Shown: piece by piece, positions 10,971-27,186 of the stretch
How positions within the stretch are numbered: position 1 is the first letter of the stretch
How the letters are laid out: every line of letters begins with the position of its first letter
Source of the DNA: an uncultured Phycisphaerales bacterium
GTDB lineage: Bacteria; Planctomycetota; Phycisphaerae; Tepidisphaerales; Tepidisphaeraceae
DNA length: 64,000 nt
Direction: 5' to 3'
Assembly (NCBI GenBank): GCA_937904525.1
Contig: CALEKX010000112.1
Coordinates: 13,811-77,810, forward strand
Notes under the pieces: generated by a model
Database searches by the model: none
What the model was told of the DNA's origin: nothing
Seen by the model: the letters and a program-made list of their open reading frames with translations, nothing else
Program-made: the position numbers and the translations under genes

Positions 10971-12067
10971 AAACCTGTAGTAAAACCGTCTACGACGATC
11001 TGCTCGAGCGGATGCGGCAGTCCATCATCCGCGGCATCCACAAACCGGGCGACTTCGTCGGCACGGAGCAGGAGCTGGGACGCACTGCCGGCATCAGCCG
11101 GGTGTCGGTCCGCCGCGCCACCGACCAGCTCATCCGCGAGGGCCTGATCGAACGCCGCCCGGGCAAGGGCCTGTTCGTCCGCCGTCGCGACCTGGCCACG
11201 CGCCTTATCCAGATCGTCGTGCCGGATCTGGCCTTCGAACAGTGCGTGCAGATCGCGCGCGGCGCCCAAGAGCTGGGAGCCGAACGCGGCTTCCAGGTGC
11301 AGGTTTACGACGCCCACAACCGCATGGACCGCGAGATCGGGTTCCTTGAACGGCTCCCCGAAGCCGTCGAAGGGGCGCTGGTCCTCTCGTGGCACCATCC
11401 GCGCTTCACCGAAACGCTGCTCAAACTCAAGCAGAAAGGGACGCCCTTCATCCTCGTCGACGAGCACTCGAGCGATATCGAGGTCTCGTCCGTCACAGCG
11501 GATAACTACGCCGGCGGCATGGCGGTCGGCCATGCCCTGATCGACATGGGCCACCGGACCATCGGCTTCATCGGCAACCTGTCCGCCGGCACGGTCCGTG
11601 CCCGTCTGGAGGGCCTGCGCGACGCCATCGGCGATCGCGGCTTGCCGTTCAACCGGGCTCATGTGATGGATCTGGCGGTCCAGCCGCAGGAAGACTGGGC
11701 CGAGCGCATCGCTTTGCGCACGCGGGAGCTGCTGTCGCGCCCCGACCGCCCCACAGCAGTGTTTTATTCCAACGACCAGGTGGCGGCTGAAGGGCTGCGG
11801 ACGATCCGCGCGATGGGTATCCGCGTACCAGAAGAGTTGAGTGTGGTCGGTTTCGACAACTCGCCGCTTTGCCGATGGCTGGACCCGCCGCTGGCGTCGG
11901 TCGAACAGCCGTCGTTTGAGATGGGTCGGGCAGCCATGGAAATGCTGCTGGACCGCCTGCAGGCTCCCCCAACCGCCAAGCCGCCGGCAGTCCGTCAGGT
12001 CACGCTGCCGGTGAAATGGATTCCGCGCACGTCAATCGGGGCTCCCCCGAAAGGAGCGAACCAATGA
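10952..12067 (+). CDS. GntR-type HTH regulator fused to LacI/periplasmic-binding-fold sugar-sensor domain
   Basis: N-terminal [64 protein letters not shown], followed by a PBP type-1 domain (IVVPDL..., [23 protein letters not shown]). The track start 10916 (TTG) coincides with the -35 box, so GTG 10952 is preferred. Confidence 0.8.
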
Positions 12068-12804
12068 TCGCCACACCCGCCCGCGACCGCCGCGTCGGGT
12101 TTACACTTGTCGAACTGCTGGTTGTCATCGGCATCATCGCCGTGCTGATCGCGATGCTCATGCCCGCGCTCACCAAGGCGCGTCAGAGCGCGCTGACGTT
12201 GACTTGCGCGTCCAACCTCCGGCAGATCGGCATCATGTTCGGCATGTATTCCCAGGACTACCCCGGCTGGCTGCCCCCGCTGAACTGGAAGCACGACCTG
12301 GACAACTCGATCCCGAATCACAACTCCTACGGCATGGTCCATGCCCTGGGTCCGTACATGGGGCATCCGGAATGGGCTGGGCAGTCTGAGGAGGCGCCCT
12401 ATATCTTCCTGTTCGATAACCCAGCCAAGGATGCGTTTCGCAAGTCAGTCTTCGTCTGTCCCGACTACTCCCCCACCGGCTACACCATCCAGCCGTATCT
12501 CAGCGGTGTTGCTGAGTCGGGATACTTGATCAAGACATCGGACCTCAAGTCCGTGGATCACACCCGGCCGCGCCGCGTCTCGAAGGTACGCAGGCCGCAC
12601 CACTCGCTGGTCCACGTGGCCGACAGCTACCAGGACTACGTCCTCAAATCGCGCAACGAGATCCTCAACGGAAAACGTCACTTTGACATCTACCGCCACA
12701 ACGGCGGCACGGCTGCCAACGTGCTGTTCTTCGACGGGCACGTCAGCACGTTCCGGACCGAGTACATCCGAGCCAACATCACCCAGTACCTCACATTGGA
12801 ATAG
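12064..12804 (+). CDS. DUF1559-type protein with prepilin-type N-terminal cleavage/methylation signal
   Basis: [28 protein letters not shown]...CASNLRQIG and C-terminal [12 protein letters not shown] (H-X9-DG-like). ATG 12064 overlaps the upstream stop (ATGA). Confidence 0.85.
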
Positions 12805-19956: not shown

Positions 19957-20397
19957 GTGGCCGCCAACGTGACATTTTCCGCTGAGACACTGCTCCGCGA
20001 AGCCGGGCTGAAGCGCACGCCTGTGCGCCTGGCTGTTCTGGAGCTGCTTGCCGGCATGCACACGCCCCTGGCGGCTCAGCAGATCCTCGACGCTCTCCCA
20101 GCCAGCACGGATTCGGTCACGGTCTATCGCACGCTCAACACACTGACCGAACACCGCCTGCTGCACCGCATCCGCGGCGATGATCGCGTTTGGCGCTATG
20201 CCCTCAGCGACAGTGAGCCGCAATCCCCCCGCCACGATCACGCCCACTTCGTCTGCGAATCGTGCGGCAGCGTCGAATGCCTGCGCGATGTGCCCATCCC
20301 CCGCAAGCTGATGCAGCAGGTGGCACCCGATCAGCAGTACCGGGTGAAGTACTCAGAACTGCTGTTGCATGGGGTGTGTCCAAGGTGTCAGTCCTGA
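19957..20397 (+). CDS. Fur-family metalloregulator
   Basis: LREAGLKRTPVRLAVLELLAG...VYRTLNTLTEHRLLHRI...HAHFVCESCGSVECL...HGVCPRC. Start is uncertain. GTG 19957 sits 7-8 nt after a TACAAT box (19944-19949). Alternatives are ATG 19921 or GTG 19876. Confidence 0.75.
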   Translation: MAANVTFSAETLLREAGLKRTPVRLAVLELLAGMHTPLAAQQILDALPASTDSVTVYRTLNTLTEHRLLHRIRGDDRVWRYALSDSEPQSPRHDHAHFVCESCGSVECLRDVPIPRKLMQQVAPDQQYRVKYSELLLHGVCPRCQS

Positions 20398-20429
20398 TCA
20401 GCGACGAAGGGCGAGGGCGCGCGTCGCCT

Positions 20430-20472
20430 GTTGCCTGTTGACGTCGGCTGACGGTGGTGGTCAACAAACAAC
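20430..20472. terminator. hairpin between the convergent fur-family and FtsK-like genes
   Basis: GTTGCCTGTTGAC (20430-20442) against GTCAACAAACAAC (20460-20472), 11 of 13 complementary. Confidence 0.3.
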
Positions 20473-20498
20473 ATGCACCCAGCCACACGGCTGCGGCA

Positions 20499-23400
20499 TC
20501 ACGCCTTCTTCTGCAGCTTCTCGCCAACCTCCTGCAGCCACTGTGCATCCGGCAGTGCGTACGGCCGGAACTTCTCCATCATGCCCTGCTCTTCGCTGTA
20601 GGCCAGCGCACGGAAGAAGCCGAGCTTGTTGGCGGCTGGGGAGTCAATCAGGTTGCTCGAATCGGCTGCGCTCATCTGGAACAGAATGCGGTTGTCGAAC
20701 TCACGCATGCTGCTGCGTTCGATCGTCCGCTCCACGGCGGCCGGCGTGTCGCACCAGGCGATCACATGGATGCCGACGCCCGGACCGTCGCGCAGCAGAT
20801 CGGCAAACTGCTTGTCCGGCTGAGGCGGCTTCTCCGCGTCATCCAGCGAGAAGCTGAAGCCCTCCTCGCTCTTGCGGAGCACGCGATATCGCTGCAAGCC
20901 GTAGATGACCAGGTAGATCGTCGGCGCGTCAGGATCGTCCTGCTCCTGCCGGCGGGCAAGTTCCCTGGCCAATTCATCGATCGCTTCAGCCGTCTGGCGG
21001 TACTCTACCCGCTCGACCTGTTGCGGAATCACCGCCGCGACCTGCTCCAGCCGGCCGGCGAGGTCCGAATCCGCCGGCGTCCCATCCATGAGCACGAAAC
21101 GCGCCCGGTCTTTGCCGTGCTGCGCCGCCAGCGAGATCATCGAGACGCCAATGATCGCCATCGCCTGCTCGTCCTGCTGGCCGATGATGAGCATGTTGGC
21201 TCCGGGCTGACGGCGGAACGGCACAGCCGTCGGCTCCTTGATCGCCACCGGCTCGCCCAGCCACGCGCGCGGCGGGCCATCGAGGCGAGCGCCATCGAGC
21301 GCTTCGGCCAGCAGCCGATTCCTGCGGACATCGGCTGGGACATTCCCCTCGAACACAATCGGCTCGGGCACGCGAACGCCCTGCTGCTTTGCCCGATCTT
21401 GCACCTGCTCGAGGAACACATCCCGCTGCTCATCCGGCAGCCAGGCCACCTGGAACGGGCTGTTGCCCTCGACCAGGCCCCCGGCGTCGTTGTAGATCGC
21501 CTCGCCCGGACGCGACAGCAATCGCGCAGCCGAGTTGTTGTCACCCAGGATGAGCTGCGAATCGGCTTCGCTGGTCTGCAGGGCGATGCGCACCGCGATC
21601 TGGCCGATCGTGCTGCGCGACAGGCCGGATGATCCGGCGATCGTCTGTGAACCCAGCAGCACGTGAATGCCGAACGCACGGCCCTGTCGCACCAGGCGAT
21701 CCAGCAGCACGGCTGCGTCCTGAGCGAGTTTGTCGTCTTCGCTGAAGAACTCCTGGAACTCGTCGATGATCAGCACTGTCCGCGGCATGACATCGCCGGG
21801 CACTTCGCGACGGTAGGAGGCCAGATCCTGCACCCCGACCTTTCGGAACAGCTCGCCGCGCCGCGTCAGCTCCGCGTCAATCCGCTGGAGCACGCTCAGG
21901 CCGAACTCACGATCCGACTCCACCGCGATCGCCCGCGCATGCGGCAGGCTGTGCGTGGCGTACGTCTTGAACTCGACGCCCTTCTTGAAGTCGACCAGAT
22001 ACAGCTCGACCTGATCGGGCGAATACCACATCGCCAGGTTCGTGACGATCGCATGCAGCAATGTCGACTTACCCGAACCGGTCTTACCGGCGATCAACGC
22101 ATGCTGGGCGACGCCCTTGCCCAGGCGCAGATGCTGCTGGCGCGTCGCGCCCATGCGGCCGACGGCGACGCTCAGCTCGCTGCTGCTGTCCAGCGACCAG
22201 AACTGCTCCGGCTTGGGCGCGATGGCTGTGAACGGCACCTCGACCCGCTTGGATTCCTTGGCATGCCGGCCGACGACATCGAGCATCTGCGTCAGCGTCT
22301 GCTCCGACGGCGGCGGATCGAGCTTCAGCGGGAACTGCTGGAAGACCTCGTCTCTCCAGACGAACCGGCCATTTTCGCGAACGAGGTTGATGCTGTGCTG
22401 CTCCAGCTCGTCGATGTGCGTGCCGCTGGGCAGCGGCGTGCGCAGGTCGCGCAGCACGAGCGTATACACGCCGCAGCGGGCACCCGAGCTGGCGATGCTC
22501 GCCAGGCGCCGGAAACTGTCGCCTTCGAAACCGACGGGGAAGTCGGCGATCACCAGGAACCGATACGGCTCGGCGAGTTCGCCGGCCTGCGCGTTGTACT
22601 CGTCGATCGTCTCGAACTCGTTGCGCAGGTACTTCTGGATGACCGTCTCCATGTGCTCGGTCAGATCAGCCAGCCGCTGCTCGATATGCTCCGATTCGGT
22701 CCAGATGCGCGAGCCGACGAGGGCTTCGTCGTGATCGGCCAGGTGCATGAAACCGGCGAAGTTCTGTCCCAGGCCGACGGGATCGATGATCGTAAAGCGC
22801 ACGCGTCCCGCCGGCAGGCTGGTCAGCAGGCGCGACATCACCATGCGCAGCGTGTCCAGCGCCTCGGGCCGGCCCTCGCGATCCGTATGGATCAGCAGCG
22901 ACGAATGCCGCGGGAACGCCAGCCCGGCTGGCAGCGAAAAGGCCTCGGGCAGGCGAAGGCTTCGCGGCAGCTTGTCGGTGATGCGCTGCAGATCGACCTG
23001 CAACTCGCCAAATCGGACGGTCTGCGCGAACCGCTGCGGCGGCTGCCACGTGTTCCAGTCGGTCTGCTCCCAGCGGAGGATCGCGCGACCATCAGATGAG
23101 CCGGACTGGTGGATCGGATCGGCGATTTCCGCAAGCCCCGTGTCCCACCGTTGCTGCAGGGCTGCGCGGGCCTGAGCGTACTGCTGCTCAGCCTCGGCAA
23201 TGGCCTGATCATGTCGCTCCTGGAACTCGCGCAGCTTACGCTCGCGACGCTGCTCGATCGCCTCGCGTGTCTGCGCCAGCCAGGCGTCGACCTCAGCCAG
23301 GGCCTTCTCCCGTTCAGCGGAGACGCGGGCACGGATCTCGTCGTACTGGGCCTTGGCCTTTTCGATGGCCTGGTCGTGGTGATGGCGTGCCTGGGCCCGG

Positions 23401-24425
23401 ACGGGGGCGAATTTCTTCTTGAGGGCGTCGATCTCGGCTTCGGTCTTGCGCTTCGACTCTGCGACGCGCGAATCGCGCTCGCGCGCCAGGTGATCGAGGT
23501 GCGCCTTGGCGGCGTTGCGTGTGGCGGTCAGCTCAGCCCGCAGCGGCGCGTAGGCCTGGCGGATCTGCGATCGGGCAAGGAACCGCAAGCCGATGGCGAC
23601 GACGACGAACGCCGCCAGTGCGATCCCGCCGACAATCGCCAGCCGCGAGATATCGGGCGGCCCTCCGCCGTCGGCGAGGTAGGTCCCGCCAACAGCCAAA
23701 CCGACGACCAGCACGCCGACGATCCACGGCGTCAGCCCGACGAACAGGCGCGGGATCGGCAGCGTGTCGAAGCGGCGCAGGGCGAGCTGCGCGGCTTGCA
23801 GATGCTTGTCGTACAGCTCGGCTGGGTCGCCTTCGAGTTTGATCTCCGGCGGGTGGGTCTGAGCCAGGCTGGTGGCGCCGTAGGTGTGCAGCAGCTCGGC
23901 GAGCTTGTTCTCCATGGCATCGAGCTGCTCGATGCGTTCGCCGTATTTCAGCTTGTCCTGCCTGGCATCCTCGCGAGCCTGGGCGACGGTGGCTTCGTGG
24001 ACGCTTTCAGCCAGCCATGCGGCCTGGTCGAACTGCTTTTTGACCTCACGCTCAGCAGATTGGAGCTCCAGATCGGCTGTAGCCTTGGCCCGGGCGAAGG
24101 CCTCGGATGCGGCCTTGAGCTCGGCATCGAACTTGGCTCCCAGATGGCTGGTGCGCTGCTCATGCTTGGCCTGGGCAGCCTGGGTTTGCTGGGCGATCTG
24201 CTGCTCGAGGACGATCCTGGCGGTCTTGAGATCGCTGCGGGCGGTCTCCAGGCGCTGCTGATGCTCCTGCTCGATGCGGGCTTCTTCCTCAGCCGCGGAG
24301 GTGGACAGATCGATCAGCGACCGCAGTGCGGCGCGCTGGACATCTCGGGGCGTGGCGGCGCCGTTGCCGGCTGGCTCGTCCGAGCCGATGGATTGAGGTT
24401 CCAGTTGGTCGTGCATATCAGTCAC
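20499..24425 (-). CDS. membrane FtsK/SpoIIIE-family ATPase with three tandem FtsK-like modules (EssC/EccC-like architecture)
   Basis: Walker A LIAGKTGSGKSTLLH (nt ~22065-22097) and Walker B TVLIIDEFQEF (nt ~21756-21776). Flanking degenerate modules: LLIHTDREGRPEAL/YRFLVIADFP and MLIIGQQDEQAMAII/IYLVIYGLQ. TM hairpin at aa ~226-284. Long Q/A/E/R-rich coiled-coil-like segments at aa 1-220 and 290-430. Start is GTG 24425 or ATG 24416. Confidence 0.85.
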   Translation of the reverse strand: MTDMHDQLEPQSIGSDEPAGNGAATPRDVQRAALRSLIDLSTSAAEEEARIEQEHQQRLETARSDLKTARIVLEQQIAQQTQAAQAKHEQRTSHLGAKFDAELKAASEAFARAKATADLELQSAEREVKKQFDQAAWLAESVHEATVAQAREDARQDKLKYGERIEQLDAMENKLAELLHTYGATSLAQTHPPEIKLEGDPAELYDKHLQAAQLALRRFDTLPIPRLFVGLTPWIVGVLVVGLAVGGTYLADGGGPPDISRLAIVGGIALAAFVVVAIGLRFLARSQIRQAYAPLRAELTATRNAAKAHLDHLARERDSRVAESKRKTEAEIDALKKKFAPVRAQARHHHDQAIEKAKAQYDEIRARVSAEREKALAEVDAWLAQTREAIEQRRERKLREFQERHDQAIAEAEQQYAQARAALQQRWDTGLAEIADPIHQSGSSDGRAILRWEQTDWNTWQPPQRFAQTVRFGELQVDLQRITDKLPRSLRLPEAFSLPAGLAFPRHSSLLIHTDREGRPEALDTLRMVMSRLLTSLPAGRVRFTIIDPVGLGQNFAGFMHLADHDEALVGSRIWTESEHIEQRLADLTEHMETVIQKYLRNEFETIDEYNAQAGELAEPYRFLVIADFPVGFEGDSFRRLASIASSGARCGVYTLVLRDLRTPLPSGTHIDELEQHSINLVRENGRFVWRDEVFQQFPLKLDPPPSEQTLTQMLDVVGRHAKESKRVEVPFTAIAPKPEQFWSLDSSSELSVAVGRMGATRQQHLRLGKGVAQHALIAGKTGSGKSTLLHAIVTNLAMWYSPDQVELYLVDFKKGVEFKTYATHSLPHARAIAVESDREFGLSVLQRIDAELTRRGELFRKVGVQDLASYRREVPGDVMPRTVLIIDEFQEFFSEDDKLAQDAAVLLDRLVRQGRAFGIHVLLGSQTIAGSSGLSRSTIGQIAVRIALQTSEADSQLILGDNNSAARLLSRPGEAIYNDAGGLVEGNSPFQVAWLPDEQRDVFLEQVQDRAKQQGVRVPEPIVFEGNVPADVRRNRLLAEALDGARLDGPPRAWLGEPVAIKEPTAVPFRRQPGANMLIIGQQDEQAMAIIGVSMISLAAQHGKDRARFVLMDGTPADSDLAGRLEQVAAVIPQQVERVEYRQTAEAIDELARELARRQEQDDPDAPTIYLVIYGLQRYRVLRKSEEGFSFSLDDAEKPPQPDKQFADLLRDGPGVGIHVIAWCDTPAAVERTIERSSMREFDNRILFQMSAADSSNLIDSPAANKLGFFRALAYSEEQGMMEKFRPYALPDAQWLQEVGEKLQKKA

Positions 24426-24434
24426 AGGTGTCTT

Positions 24435-24647
24435 TCACTGGCAGTCGTTACGGATGCGCGACAACAGCGCTGCCATCTGGTCCATGGCGCCGACGGCTGA
24501 CTTGACGTCTTTTTCCAGCGATTCGAGATACTTCTTTTCGAACTGTTCGGCGACAGCGTCGCTCCAACTACTCCGGGTCTCCTGCCAGCGGAGCATCAGC
24601 TCGCGTGTCGCCTTCGTCAGTCCGCCTCGACCTTCGTATACACCCAT
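24435..24647 (-). CDS. small helical-hairpin protein, WXG100-like (W-S-D turn)
   Basis: 70 aa: ...TKATRELMLRWQETRSSWSDAVAEQFEKKYLESLEKDVKSAVGAMDQMAALL. Two helices flank a W-x-D turn, followed by A..F as in WXG100 proteins. The ATG directly abuts the upstream TAA (TAAATG) in the same frame. Confidence 0.55.
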   Translation of the reverse strand: MGVYEGRGGLTKATRELMLRWQETRSSWSDAVAEQFEKKYLESLEKDVKSAVGAMDQMAALLSRIRNDCQ

Positions 24648-25361
24648 TTACGTGCTCCGGTGGTCGTTATTGCGTTGTTCGTCAGTTTGTGGCGATGGAG
24701 GGGACGCCTGCTGGGCGTTTTGTGTGTCGGATCCTTCATCGCCGGACGGTGATTTGTCGCCTTCGGCAGCGGGCGCGGGCTCGGATTGGGCAGCCGGCTG
24801 GTTTTCCTCGCGCGGGGCGCGACGCATGGACGGCTGATCGTCCGCCTGCGAGGTGGCCATCTCCGGTGCGGCAACGCCCTCTCCGGTCGCATACGCCTCG
24901 ATCCGCTGGATAATCGCCTCAAGGTCGTGTGCCGCCTGCGGAATGTCGGCTGAGACGATGCTGGCAATGCGCTGGACCTGGCCCTTGTACATCATCGCCT
25001 CGCGGCGCAGGTGCTGGGTGTACTTTTTGACAGCCAGGACCTTCTGCTCGGCTTCGGCAAGGCGGCGCAGGGCCAGTTGCAGGGCCTTTTGCTCATCGAT
25101 GTCCGACTGGCGGCCGCCGGTGGGGCTCTTGAAGATCTGCTTCTGGCGAAGGGCTTCCTTGGCACGCATGACGGCTTCCTGCCGTTTTCGCACCTCGCTG
25201 GCCCAGAAGGTGCGCTGCTCGTTCTCCAGCCACATCTGCACGCGGGAGATCTCGGCTTCGGCTTCGTTGAGGGCGACGCTGGCACTCTCCTGGAACTTCC
25301 ACAATGCCCGCTTGAACAGCTTGAGGGCTTCGATGGATTCGACTCGTGCGGATTCTGCCAT
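24648..25361 (-). CDS. helical protein with disordered P/Q/S/E-rich C-terminal tail, function unknown
   Basis: aa 1-160 is strongly helical/heptad-like (VESIEALKLFKRALWKFQESASVALNEAEAEISRVQMWLENEQRTFWASEVRKRQEAV...). aa 160-237 is low complexity. It sits between the two WXG-like genes. Confidence 0.6.
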   Translation of the reverse strand: MAESARVESIEALKLFKRALWKFQESASVALNEAEAEISRVQMWLENEQRTFWASEVRKRQEAVMRAKEALRQKQIFKSPTGGRQSDIDEQKALQLALRRLAEAEQKVLAVKKYTQHLRREAMMYKGQVQRIASIVSADIPQAAHDLEAIIQRIEAYATGEGVAAPEMATSQADDQPSMRRAPREENQPAAQSEPAPAAEGDKSPSGDEGSDTQNAQQASPPSPQTDEQRNNDHRST

Positions 25362-25392
25362 GGTTCAACCGCCCGTTCCCAGGACCATGAAC

Positions 25393-25425
25393 CCGTCGCA
25401 TGCGGCTAGAGCCGCTATCCGACGG
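25393..25425 (-). other. nested stem-loop just downstream of the 90-aa WXG-like gene
   Basis: On the + strand, CCGTCG (25393-25398) pairs with CGACGG (25420-25425), with an inner stem GCGGC-TAGA-GCCGC. No U-tract follows. It is a candidate mRNA-stability or partial-termination element inside the operon. Confidence 0.3.
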
Positions 25426-25439
25426 ACCAGGCAGCGGGC

Positions 25440-25712
25440 CTATCGCTGCTTGAGATACTCTTCCACGGCTGCGGCCTTCTTGTTGAGGGTCGCGACGTGC
25501 TGATGCGACGCCTCCAGGAAGTTGCTGAGCACCTTGACGGTTTGCTCAAAGGCTTCGCTGAACTTTTTCTGTTCCTGATCGCGCCAGCTCTGCTCCAGGC
25601 CGCGCATCTTGGCGTGCAGGGAGGAAATCAGACCCTGCAGGTCATTATTGAACCGGTTGAGGTCACCGGCGAATCGCCGCAGTTCGTTGGGGTCAACATG
25701 GGCCTTGGCCAT
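25440..25712 (-). CDS. WXG100-like (ESAT-6/EsxA-type) small protein, W-R-D in place of W-x-G
   Basis: 90 aa. MAKAHVDPNELRRFAGDLNRFNNDLQGLISSLHAKMRGLEQSWRDQEQKKFSEAFEQTVKVLSNFLEASHQHVATLNKKAAAVEEYLKQR. Length, the V.P.ELR.FA opening, the central W at aa 43 and the following F..F match the WXG100 helix-turn-helix pattern. GGAGG lies 6 nt upstream of the ATG. Confidence 0.65.
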   Translation of the reverse strand: MAKAHVDPNELRRFAGDLNRFNNDLQGLISSLHAKMRGLEQSWRDQEQKKFSEAFEQTVKVLSNFLEASHQHVATLNKKAAAVEEYLKQR

Positions 25713-25851
25713 CGGTACCTCCGTATAGCCGCCAGTTTACCGGAGGATCGATCCTGTGACGAGTTTGAGGCCCGTGAGCAAACTTGGAACGGTGATTCGC
25801 AACCGCCGACAATTTCAGTAAGATGCGCTCCCGCGCGGCGGGAACAGACCA

Positions 25852-27186
25852 ATGGCAGATAAGACCTACACCACGACAAACTCCGAATCCGCCTTTCTGA
25901 AGGCCCGGCAGATCATGCCCGGCGGCGTCAGCTCGCCGGTGCGCGCATTCTCAGCCGTCGGGGGGACACCGATTTTCATCAAGAGCGCCGAAGGCTGCCG
26001 TGTCACCGATATCGACGGAAATGAGTACATCGACTACGTCTGCAGCTACGGGCCGTTGATCGGCGGCCATGCCAATGAGCAGGTCGTTGCGGCGTTGTCC
26101 AAGGCCATCGGCCGCGGCACCAGCTACGGCGCCCCCACCGAAGCCGAGACACAGCTTGCCAGCACGATCATCTCCGCCCTGCCGGACATGGAGATGATCC
26201 GATTCGTCAACAGCGGCACCGAGGCGACGATGAGCGCGATCCGCCTGGCGCGGGCCGCCACCGGCCGGGCAAAGATCGTTAAATGCGTCGGCTGCTACCA
26301 TGGCCATGCCGATGCCCTGCTCGTCGAAGCCGGCAGCGGCGCGCTGACCCTGCGCGACAGCACCCAGGCCGCAGCCAAGCCCGGCATCCCCGAATCCGCA
26401 GCCGCCGACACGCTGCTGGTCCACTACAACGACCTCAATGGCGCCAAAGCTGTCTTCGAGCAGCATCCCGGCCAGATCGCCGCTTTTATCGTTGAGCCGG
26501 TGGCGGGCAACATGGGGGTCATCCCCCCGGCTGAGGGGTATCTGCAGGGCCTCCGCGATCTGTGCACCGAGCACGACGCCCTGCTGATCCTGGATGAAGT
26601 GATGACCGGTTTCCGTGTCGCCTGGGGCGGCGCGCAGGTGATGTACAAGGTCAAGCCGGACCTGACCTGCCTGGGGAAGGTCATCGGCGGCGGCCTGCCT
26701 GTGGGTGCGTATGGCGGATCGCGGAAGCTCATGGAGATGATCAGCCCTGCTGGCCCGGTCTATCAGGCGGGGACGCTCAGCGGCAATCCGCTGGCCATGG
26801 CAGCCGGCCTGGCGACGTTGGAGCTGCTGAAGGAAGAGGGCGTCTACGAGAGCCTGGAAGCCAAGTCGGCTGAACTGGCCTCGGGACTGGCAGCCGCGGC
26901 TGAGGACGCGGGCATACCGGTGACGATCAATCGCGTCGGCAGCATGCTGACGGTCTTCTTCACCGCCCAGCCGGGCGCGGCCGTCACCAATTACGCCCAG
27001 GCGACGGCCAGCAATACCGAGACATACGCCGCTTTCTTCCATGCCATGCTCGAAAATGGCGTCATGCTCCCGCCGTCGCAGTACGAGGCCTGGTTCCCCA
27101 GCCTCGCCCACGACGCCGACGCCATCGAGCAGACCCTCAAAGCCGCGAAAAAGGCCTTTGCCGCCATCACGGCTAAATCCTCGTAA
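25852..27186 (+). CDS. hemL: glutamate-1-semialdehyde 2,1-aminomutase
   Basis: [12 protein letters not shown]...[13 protein letters not shown]...[12 protein letters not shown]...[16 protein letters not shown]...[15 protein letters not shown]. Confidence 0.92.

Follow-up and report, generated by a model that had tools for sequence, protein, structure and literature searches.

The window analyzed here, a 64,000 nt stretch of contig CALEKX010000112.1 from an uncultured Phycisphaerales bacterium, carries on its minus strand a gene (20499..24425) for a large ATPase with three successive FtsK-fold modules, the central one alone retaining a P-loop. We consider that the product of this gene is probably the ATPase that drives a minimal type VII-like cassette of four genes, in which WXG100 proteins are combined with a 'YueA-like' FtsK/HerA ATPase, and give this reading a probability of about 0.65. 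The domain pattern has been published before: 'solo WXG' proteins, together with a YueA-like ATPase that has three HerA/FtsK domains with activity in the middle one alone, were listed by Zhang et al., 2012 (PMC3482391, Table 1 footnote 6), planctomycetes included. The gene is an ordinary member of the planctomycete clade of this distinct branch of type VII secretion system (T7SS)-like ATPases, and it matches the published type in its three HerA/FtsK domains, its active middle domain and the adjacent stand-alone WXG gene. The footnote assigns the type to 'mobile versions of T7SS', whereas in Planctomycetota the genes are chromosomal and follow taxonomy; it gives no anatomy, partners or function, and the planctomycete clade adds a membrane hairpin and two long helical arms. 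In the literature on T7SS or WXG100 proteins in Planctomycetes/Planctomycetota, we found no dedicated study, only this footnote. Such genes are currently annotated as 'FtsK/SpoIIIE domain-containing protein' or 'hypothetical'.

The open reading frame (ORF) was confirmed and encodes 1308 aa from a GTG at 24425 or 1305 aa from an ATG at 24416. The database copy is 1305 aa long and 100% identical, its ATG start lying three codons inside the GTG, and the GC content of 0.83 at third codon positions fits a genuine gene. The assignment as an EccC/EssC-like three-module ATPase is based on the ORF, its translation, the Pfam FtsK_SpoIIIE match, partial NCBIfam matches and homologues. Two helical regions flanking a transmembrane hairpin occupy the first 440 aa and are followed by module 1 (aa 441-735; 22221..23105, minus strand), module 2 (aa 736-1010; 21396..22220, minus strand) and module 3 (aa 1011-1308; 20502..21395, minus strand). 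A regex scan detected exactly one Walker A motif and one hhhhD[DE] Walker B motif in the whole protein. The former, GKTGSGKS (aa 780-787; 22065..22088, minus strand), is the sole P-loop, and the latter is VLIIDE (aa 884-889; 21759..21776, minus strand); both lie in module 2. Module 1 reads LLIHTDREGRPEAL at aa 510-523, with SLLIHTDREGR at the Walker A position, and YRFLVIADFP at aa 621-630, with FLVIADF at the Walker B position. Module 3 reads MLIIGQQDEQAMAII at aa 1078-1092, where GQQDE replaces the P-loop, and IYLVIYGLQ at aa 1170-1178, and it has no acidic Walker B residue. The motifs listed in a preliminary description of this sequence were all recovered at these residues, and its central claim, that the middle module alone keeps a P-loop, held both in the regex scan and in the orthologue survey described below.

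The degenerate motifs are not a peculiarity of this copy. A word-index search returned >6600 homologues, the best 120 of which are all full-length proteins of ~1300 aa with at least 55% identity. An exhaustive search of 50%-identity representatives added 150 further full-length relatives, nearly all of ~1300 aa, so that the length is uniform in >250 listed relatives. Scanning of species genomes confirmed at least 586 relatives in Tepidisphaerales, Phycisphaerales, Sedimentisphaerales, Pirellulales, Gemmatales and Isosphaerales. The matches listed include the cultured Singulisphaera sp. Ch08 (locus L059), a contig labelled Phycisphaera mikurensis (L078) and one metagenome-assembled genome labelled Verrucomicrobiales. 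We surveyed the motifs in 76 orthologues ranging from Tepidisphaerales to Pirellulales, Gemmatales and Isosphaerales. Module 2 has the Walker A motif G[KR]TGSGKS in 76/76 and DEF at the Walker B site in 75, the remaining one (L057) having DEY. In module 1, Walker A is absent and replaced by SLL[IL]x[TSA]..GR..A, and the Walker B site reads YR[FV]LV[IV]A[DN]FP, with Phe in place of the catalytic Glu and the Asp often changed to Asn. The Walker A site of module 3 is always [LV][IV]G[QH]..[DE], and the acidic Walker B is absent. Modules 1 and 3 lack a P-loop in every orthologue (0/76 with one). The mean frequency of the majority residue is highest in module 2 (0.77) and amounts to 0.62 in module 1 and 0.57 in module 3. 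The uniformity of the degenerate motifs, together with the constraint on modules 1 and 3, indicates that the degenerate state is ancestral and selected. Judged by these alignments, the state with one active module is fixed across the family and the copy in the window is not decayed, which rules out the decay that the preliminary description had kept as an alternative.

Profile and structural comparisons place all three modules in the FtsK fold. The Pfam family FtsK_SpoIIIE (PF01580) matches module 2 only (aa 747-929, E 8.5e-33, 98 bits); module 1 gives a sub-threshold FtsK match (E 0.0013). The D1 region of the NCBIfam EccCa profile (TIGR03924, profile positions 411-654) aligns to aa 739-978, and the EccCb profile TIGR03925, which covers D2-D3, aligns to aa 738-1164. 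By phmmer, module 2 scored higher with D1 than with D2 of both T. curvata EccC (68.9 versus 50.4 bits) and EccC5 (63.8 versus 32.5 bits), in keeping with a canonical FtsK/EccC-D1-like ATPase. Using hhalign on slices of a 40-sequence family alignment, module 3 was aligned with module 2 (E 7.9e-5, 203 columns), with GQQDEQAM opposite GKTGSGKS, and module 1 with module 3 (E 9.2e-5). The direct match between modules 1 and 2 was weak (E 0.14), their link running via module 3 and structure. The module 3 profile matches the P-loop regions of EccC5/EccC D2. The somewhat greater closeness of module 2 to D1 and the match of module 3 to D2 suggest a DUF-D1-D2-like descent with one module fewer.

An AlphaFold2 model of module 1 alone, built from a 77-sequence alignment, reached a mean predicted local distance difference test score (pLDDT) of 91 and a predicted TM-score of 0.90. 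Its best Foldseek match was EssC D2-D3 (4lya, E 4e-11); EccC (4n1a and 4nh0), FtsK (2iut, 2ius and 6t8o) and EccCb1-D2 (9jv8) were also matched, the main range being E 4e-11 to 1e-8. Weaker matches were ESX-3 EccC3 (6sgx), the EccC5 DUF (8rin, E 4e-6, TM-score 0.41-0.50) and the B. subtilis YukB DUF (9qks). A second model covering aa 440-1308 (869 aa, 60-sequence alignment, pLDDT 80.6) consists of three successive alpha/beta modules. Its best match in the PDB was the three-domain T. curvata EccC 4nh0 (E 1.8e-32, 968 columns, collinear), followed by EccC and EssC D2-D3; it also resembles the FtsK motor and the coupling protein TcpA. In this model, module 3 has pLDDT values of 86-97, its C-terminal subdomain is highly conserved in the family, and aa 1078-1101 form a strand, a 3-residue loop and a long helix. 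The Walker A site of module 2 is modeled as a strand, a 6-residue loop and a helix; at the same site in modules 1 and 3, a strand is followed by a 1-4-residue loop and a long helix. The FtsK fold of modules 1 and 3, proposed earlier from the translation, was thus borne out.

Upstream of the modules, the protein has two transmembrane segments (~226-250 and 261-285) and no others on the Kyte-Doolittle scale, the windows >1.6 being confined to 222-235 and 257-270. This hairpin (aa 226-285; 23571..23750, minus strand) has a loop of 11 aa, which is also the median length across the orthologues, and is flanked by Arg residues on both cytoplasmic sides. Arg on both outer sides gives an N-in/C-in topology with essentially no periplasmic part. 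Hydropathy and flanking charge therefore show the ATPase as a predicted two-helix membrane hairpin whose periplasmic share is the 11 aa loop; the two helices had been pointed out in the preliminary description.

The hairpin is flanked by an N-terminal cytoplasmic helical region (aa 26-225; 23751..24350, minus strand), recognized by its composition, hendecad-like periodicity and maintained length, and by a post-transmembrane stalk (aa 286-440; 23106..23570, minus strand), recognized by its scarcity of Pro and Gly, maintained length and a periodicity of 3.67. Both are rich in A/E/Q/R/K, with Pro and Gly together at ~3%. The length preceding the first transmembrane helix is kept among the orthologues (median 236 aa) with weak sequence conservation, and the stalk between the second helix and module 1 has a median of 155 aa (range 96-188) with no conservation of sequence; the mean majority-residue frequency over the N-terminal 440 aa is 0.31-0.33. 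The hydrophobic periodicity in 73-76 orthologues peaked at 3.64-3.67 residues in the N-terminal arm (z ~42 versus shuffles) and at 3.67 in the stalk (z ~62); these z-values are inflated by kinship among the orthologues, whereas the peak position is robust. The heptad value of 3.5 gave z 12-14, merely a shoulder of this peak, and was not significant in the single ATPase sequence, and the globular module 2, run as a control, had no comparable peak. Straight helical bundles have a hendecad repeat with a period of 11/3 = 3.67, a value that also lies near the 3.6 typical of every amphipathic helix. The spectrum supports the prediction that the arms are long amphipathic helices of a hendecad-like rather than heptad type. 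Of the earlier proposal that these regions are Q/A/E/R-rich and heptad-like, the composition and the long helices stand and the heptads do not. A crude score for heptad a/d positions was dropped because it flagged globular regions too, and was replaced by the family-wide spectrum. The two arms are alike at the profile level (hhalign E 1.5e-6), perhaps partly through composition, and the stalk gave weak compositional matches to Apolipoprotein, Mitofilin and the ZorA tail.

Four genes run in the same direction here, the ATPase gene being the last. The first gene (25440..25712, minus strand) encodes a 90 aa protein that matches the Pfam family WXG100 above the cut-off (PF06013, 1.4e-10) and is the sole WXG100 match in the host genome assembly, which is 98% complete. 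In this protein W-R-D (tWRDQEqxKF) replaces W-x-G, and its highly conserved C-terminal tail, KA..iEeYL.QR, could be a recognition signal. The second gene (24648..25361, minus strand) is an ORF for a 237 aa helical protein composed of a conserved ~160 aa N-terminal domain and a disordered P/Q/S/E-rich tail, in which no Pfam match and no toxin domain was detected. The third gene, an ORF at 24435..24647 (minus strand), encodes a 70 aa WXG100-like protein with a W-x-D motif, and its stop lies 9 nt before the GTG of the ATPase. The two small families are related to each other: hhalign gave E 8e-4 centred on W-[RS]-D...F, and the 70 aa family recovers the 90 aa family in jackhmmer.

Among the 76 ATPase loci, the 70 aa gene is located directly upstream of the ATPase in 69, an orthologue of the 237 aa gene (165-393 aa) is present in 64, and the 90 aa gene was detected in 60. 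The order of the cassette is kept in 60-69/76 loci and in two long metagenome contigs, and most of the loci that do not show the full cassette are cut by contig ends. In L065, L076 and L078, where 5.9 kb upstream is available, neither the 90 aa WXG gene nor the middle gene was detected, and L078 keeps only the 70 aa gene; thus, the cassette is not invariant. The stop codon of the 237 aa gene directly adjoins the in-frame ATG of the 70 aa gene in the window (24645-24650, minus strand), an arrangement that is not conserved, being replaced by a 4 nt overlap or a gap in other genomes. The middle gene of one Phycisphaerae relative (L008:6611-7645, 344 aa) has a precomputed Pfam Imm33-like match, indicating that the variable C-terminal part of the middle protein can hold conflict-system domains. 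Genes outside the cassette vary between genomes; here pdxJ, dapA, aroDE and the gene for a Fur-family regulator lie on one side and an aminotransferase gene on the other.

The family-specific module 1 served as a probe for the distribution of the ATPase; no scores fell between 1e-10 and 1e-39, and the matches weaker than 1e-45 in the survey of the window's own family and class are fragments truncated at contig ends. Of the 25 genomes of the window's own family, 22 have module 1; among genomes of the other families of the class only a few have it, and across the phylum, where it is patchy, 35 of the 301 genomes sampled do. A FastTree phylogeny of the ATPase part clusters by order, requiring 21 label changes versus 39.7 in shuffles (0/200 shuffles as low), and contains well-supported Planctomycetia and Tepidisphaerales groups. 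The GC content of the ATPase gene is like that of its surroundings, and its flanks are housekeeping genes. These data fit mainly vertical descent with losses in Planctomycetota.

Relatives are also found on plasmids, and these together with the patchiness at the phylum level make mobility elsewhere possible. The conjugative plasmid of Rhodococcus sp. AH-ZY2 (NZ_CP126457; L104:3480-8910) encodes a 1322 aa relative with 33% identity over aa 529-1303, which has one Walker A motif, a TerD-like N-terminus and no transmembrane helix and lies beside TerD-family and DUF475 genes. Genes for proteins of 314, 73 and 87 aa, the last a WXG protein (blastp 9e-12), come after this ATPase gene, not before it. 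The plasmid NZ_AP024820 of Helicobacter sp. NHP19-012 (L105:2758-7160) carries in order a WXG protein of 89 aa, an HNH endonuclease toxin with a helical N-terminal domain, an immunity protein of the SMI1/KNR4 (SUKH) family, a 77 aa protein and an 823 aa ATPase with one P-loop and no transmembrane helices. The 90 aa protein of the window matches the plasmid WXG proteins in blastp (1e-11). The HNH toxin occupies the slot of the 237 aa gene, which by gene order is the putative cargo slot of the mobile versions, and the occurrence of a toxin with its immunity gene there fits a role as secreted cargo. The three-module, middle-active ATPase with small partners thus constitutes a wider family, to which the planctomycete clade adds the hairpin and the two arms.

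Among characterized systems, EccC (T. curvata 4NH0/4N1A; M. tuberculosis EccC5 7NP7, DUF 8RIN) gave the best structural and sequence matches. Like EccC, the ATPase has two transmembrane helices, a stalk, a dead domain, an active ATPase with GxxGxGK[ST] and hhhhDE and degenerate module(s), although the equivalence of the dead domain preceding D1 to the DUF is positional only, and in both cases WXG100 genes are linked, here three genes upstream. In ESX-5 the stalk helix of EccC joins the second transmembrane helix to the first domain of nucleotide-binding fold, the DUF (PMC8131196). The DUF resembles an ATPase in fold but is degenerate and binds no ATP, its Walker A 'GEREQVL' being folded as a helix; it is followed in EccC/EssC by a canonical active D1 and by D2/D3, whose motifs have degenerated and whose role is regulatory (bioRxiv 10.1101/2024.01.26.577026; PMC11154593). 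Thus, dead-active-degenerate is the normal order of T7SS ATPases and not an inversion. The preliminary description had contrasted the protein with EccC/EssC on the ground that these have the DUF at the N-terminus and a catalytic membrane-proximal module; this was mistaken, since the DUF follows the second transmembrane helix and stalk (PMC8131196) and is dead. An 'extended alpha-1 helix instead of a P-loop' is reported for the EccC DUF and S. aureus EssC D3 (bioRxiv 10.1101/2024.01.26.577026; PMC11154593), similar to the helix at this site in modules 1 and 3.

The real differences from EccC/EssC are the three modules, the one nucleotide site, the lack of FHA domains, the long arms, the lack of known membrane partners and the diderm host. 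EccC has four modules of P-loop fold, with D1-D3 following the DUF, whereas only three are found in the 869 cytoplasmic residues here. D2 and D3 of EccC retain GK[ST] (GPQTGKST and GDTECGKSN in 4nh0) and module 3 has none, leaving one nucleotide site per protomer as opposed to three in EccC. Compared with EccC, the protein adds the 225 aa N-terminal helical region and the 155 aa stalk. EssC/YukB (G. thermodenitrificans 4LYA, S. aureus 5FV0, B. subtilis 9QKS) likewise is a membrane-anchored multi-FtsK protein whose DUF is accompanied by degenerate distal domains, but has FHA domains and one module more; Pfam detected no FHA domain here at E values up to 1, and the N-terminus is helical and of low complexity. 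With FtsK/SpoIIIE, the protein shares the RecA-like motor fold, canonical in module 2 and degenerate in modules 1 and 3, whereas FtsK has a single motor and a gamma domain in place of triple modules with WXG linkage. The idea of a distinct lineage, raised earlier, is supported by NCBIfam scores below the cut-offs, the three modules, and the lack of FHA domains and of EccB/YukC partners.

By analogy with these systems, the ATPase may work as follows. Module 1 would stand in for the EccC/EssC DUF, as a pseudo-ATPase that adjoins the membrane stalk and serves for structure and docking. Corresponding to D1, module 2 would be the sole engine and form a hexameric ring with ATP sites between neighbors, as in FtsK and EccC D1. 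Module 3 may represent the regulatory, substrate-recognizing D2/D3 tier, so that modules 1 and 3 would form dead tiers above and below the ring. The two arms may pair into a bundle from which the ring hangs under the hairpins, replacing the EccD/EccE bridge or the FHA/EssB contacts, and the 12 transmembrane helices of the hexamer would serve as an anchor or a pore. The 90 aa and 70 aa WXG-like proteins would be the clients moved to or across the cytoplasmic membrane, and so, probably, would the 237 aa protein with its helical N-terminal domain.

Several observations weigh against this reading. The ATPase scores far below the curated NCBIfam cut-offs for EccCa (TIGR03924, 123.5 versus 509.15 bits), EccCb (TIGR03925, 108.7 versus 346.55) and EssC (TIGR03928, 93.5 versus 778.4). 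Module 1 corresponds to the DUF in position and collinearity only, its structure being not specifically DUF-like: the DUF structures (8rin, 6sgx and 9qks; TM-scores 0.41-0.56) rank below D2/D3 and FtsK (0.52-0.64), and its 77-sequence profile found no relevant match among all PDB sequences, so that only the comparison of folds places it. The helical arms are predicted from sequence, and export, hexamerization and the role of each module are proposed by analogy. Profile searches of the 98%-complete genome found neither EccB (PF05108) nor YukC/EssB (PF10140); EccD, EccE, MycP, EssA and EsaA were not individually searched for, and neither these nor other core T7SS membrane genes are linked to the cassette. 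No outer-membrane component is linked either, although Planctomycetota are diderm, and true secretion from the cell thus lacks an explanation. In the plasmid relatives the transmembrane hairpin is missing, so the ATPase of this family need not be a membrane channel.

The collinearity of the cytoplasmic model with D1-D2-D3 of 4nh0 would also suit descent from a three-domain ancestor that never had a DUF. Modules 1-3 would then be D1-D2-D3 with the outer sites lost, the engine would sit in a different tier and the mechanism, for example substrate gating, would differ. This was the reading of the preliminary description, and it is agreed with by the closer resemblance of module 1 to D2/D3 and FtsK than to DUF structures, by the alignment of TIGR03925 to module 2 as D2 (aa 738-1164), and by the plasmid relatives, which have the same three modules and neither transmembrane helices nor stalk. 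Yet module 2 scores better with D1 than with D2, both in the two EccC structures and by its match to the D1 region of EccCa, and the profile of module 3 meets D2, not D3. Moreover, all FtsK-fold modules align with one another, so a collinear structural alignment cannot assign orthology, and the functional order dead-active-degenerate equals DUF-D1-D2/3 regardless of descent. We regard this ancestry as possible but doubtful. It is unlikely that the cassette is not an exporter at all and that the ATPase is a membrane-tethered AAA-like machine remodeling or assembling helical-hairpin partners on the cytoplasmic face, for example into a helical scaffold. The 11 aa periplasmic loop, the lack of linked periplasmic or outer-membrane partners, the very long cytoplasmic arms and the lack of a toxin domain on the 237 aa protein would suit such a machine, as would the 22/25 occurrence and taxonomy-tracking tree, which speak more of housekeeping than of conflict. 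However, to our knowledge, every characterized pair of WXG100 protein and FtsK-like ATPase is an export system, and the plasmid cargo slot holds a toxin/immunity pair. In addition, the ESX pore is lined by transmembrane helices of EccC, which itself has no large periplasmic parts (PMC8131196).

A DNA translocase of the FtsK/SpoIIIE/TraB kind, acting in segregation or conjugation, would account for the FtsK_SpoIIIE match and the structural likeness to the FtsK motor and TcpA. Pfam detected no FtsK gamma or other DNA-binding domain, however, no relaxase or mobility genes flank the cassette, and WXG100-like genes are linked in 60-69/76 loci. The genome also has a separate true FtsK (contig C2, 905 aa frame), which scores 213 bits with PF01580 versus 98 for the ATPase, and we therefore consider such a translocase highly improbable. 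Hardly credible at all is that the gene is a copy that recently lost its outer P-loops or the ATPase of a defense system. Decay is refuted by the phylum-wide conservation of the degenerate motifs and the intact frame in hundreds of species. PADLOC did report SspH (1.9e-28) and mad8 (1.1e-23), but these matches are confined to the P-loop domain of module 2 (aa 773-979), and the surrounding genes include no Ssp or Mad partners; a defense role was rejected, as the matches to SspH, mad8, HerA, LmuB and ZorA cover the P-loop domain or low-complexity helices only.

Going beyond the type VII-like motor that we favor, one may speculate, at distinctly less than even odds, that the cassette of the planctomycete clade is a type VII-like machine in its own right, passed on mostly by vertical descent in diderm bacteria. 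It would have one ATP site per protomer, six hairpins as its sole membrane part and hendecad-type arms forming a long bundle or conduit in the cytoplasm in place of all accessory T7SS membrane proteins, and would deliver WXG-like hairpin proteins to the large planctomycete periplasm for a housekeeping (envelope-related) role rather than toxin delivery. Work on T7SSs has dealt almost exclusively with Actinomycetota and Bacillota, in which the ATPase needs several membrane partners and has three nucleotide-binding domains of debated roles. A four-gene version with one site and no accessory membrane proteins could show what a WXG100 translocase minimally needs and what the dead domains do, and could show whether WXG100 systems operate in double-membraned bacteria.

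Some further features of the window and the genome were noted. A scan of 20200-26000 for promoters and terminators found nothing exceeding shuffles. The sole YukD match of the genome (PF08817) was considered as a T7SSb component and rejected, as the gene belongs to a ThiF-E1/JAB/FHA/E2 operon on a different contig. This operon (contig C44, L103:3541-8794, minus strand, outside the window) encodes the YukD/ubiquitin-like protein (7.4e-12), a ThiF/E1-like protein of 403 aa, a JAB/MPN+ protein of 247 aa, a multi-transmembrane protein, an FHA protein whose Cys pairs are zinc-ribbon-like and a UBC/E2-like protein with an HPNF motif, and in its gene content it looks like a bacterial ubiquitin-like conjugation system. 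Within the window, 12016-12804 (plus strand) encodes a protein with a prepilin-type methylation motif at its N-terminus and DUF1559 (SBP_bac_10). DUF1559 is a hallmark expansion family of Planctomycetota and supports the taxonomic placement of the window.

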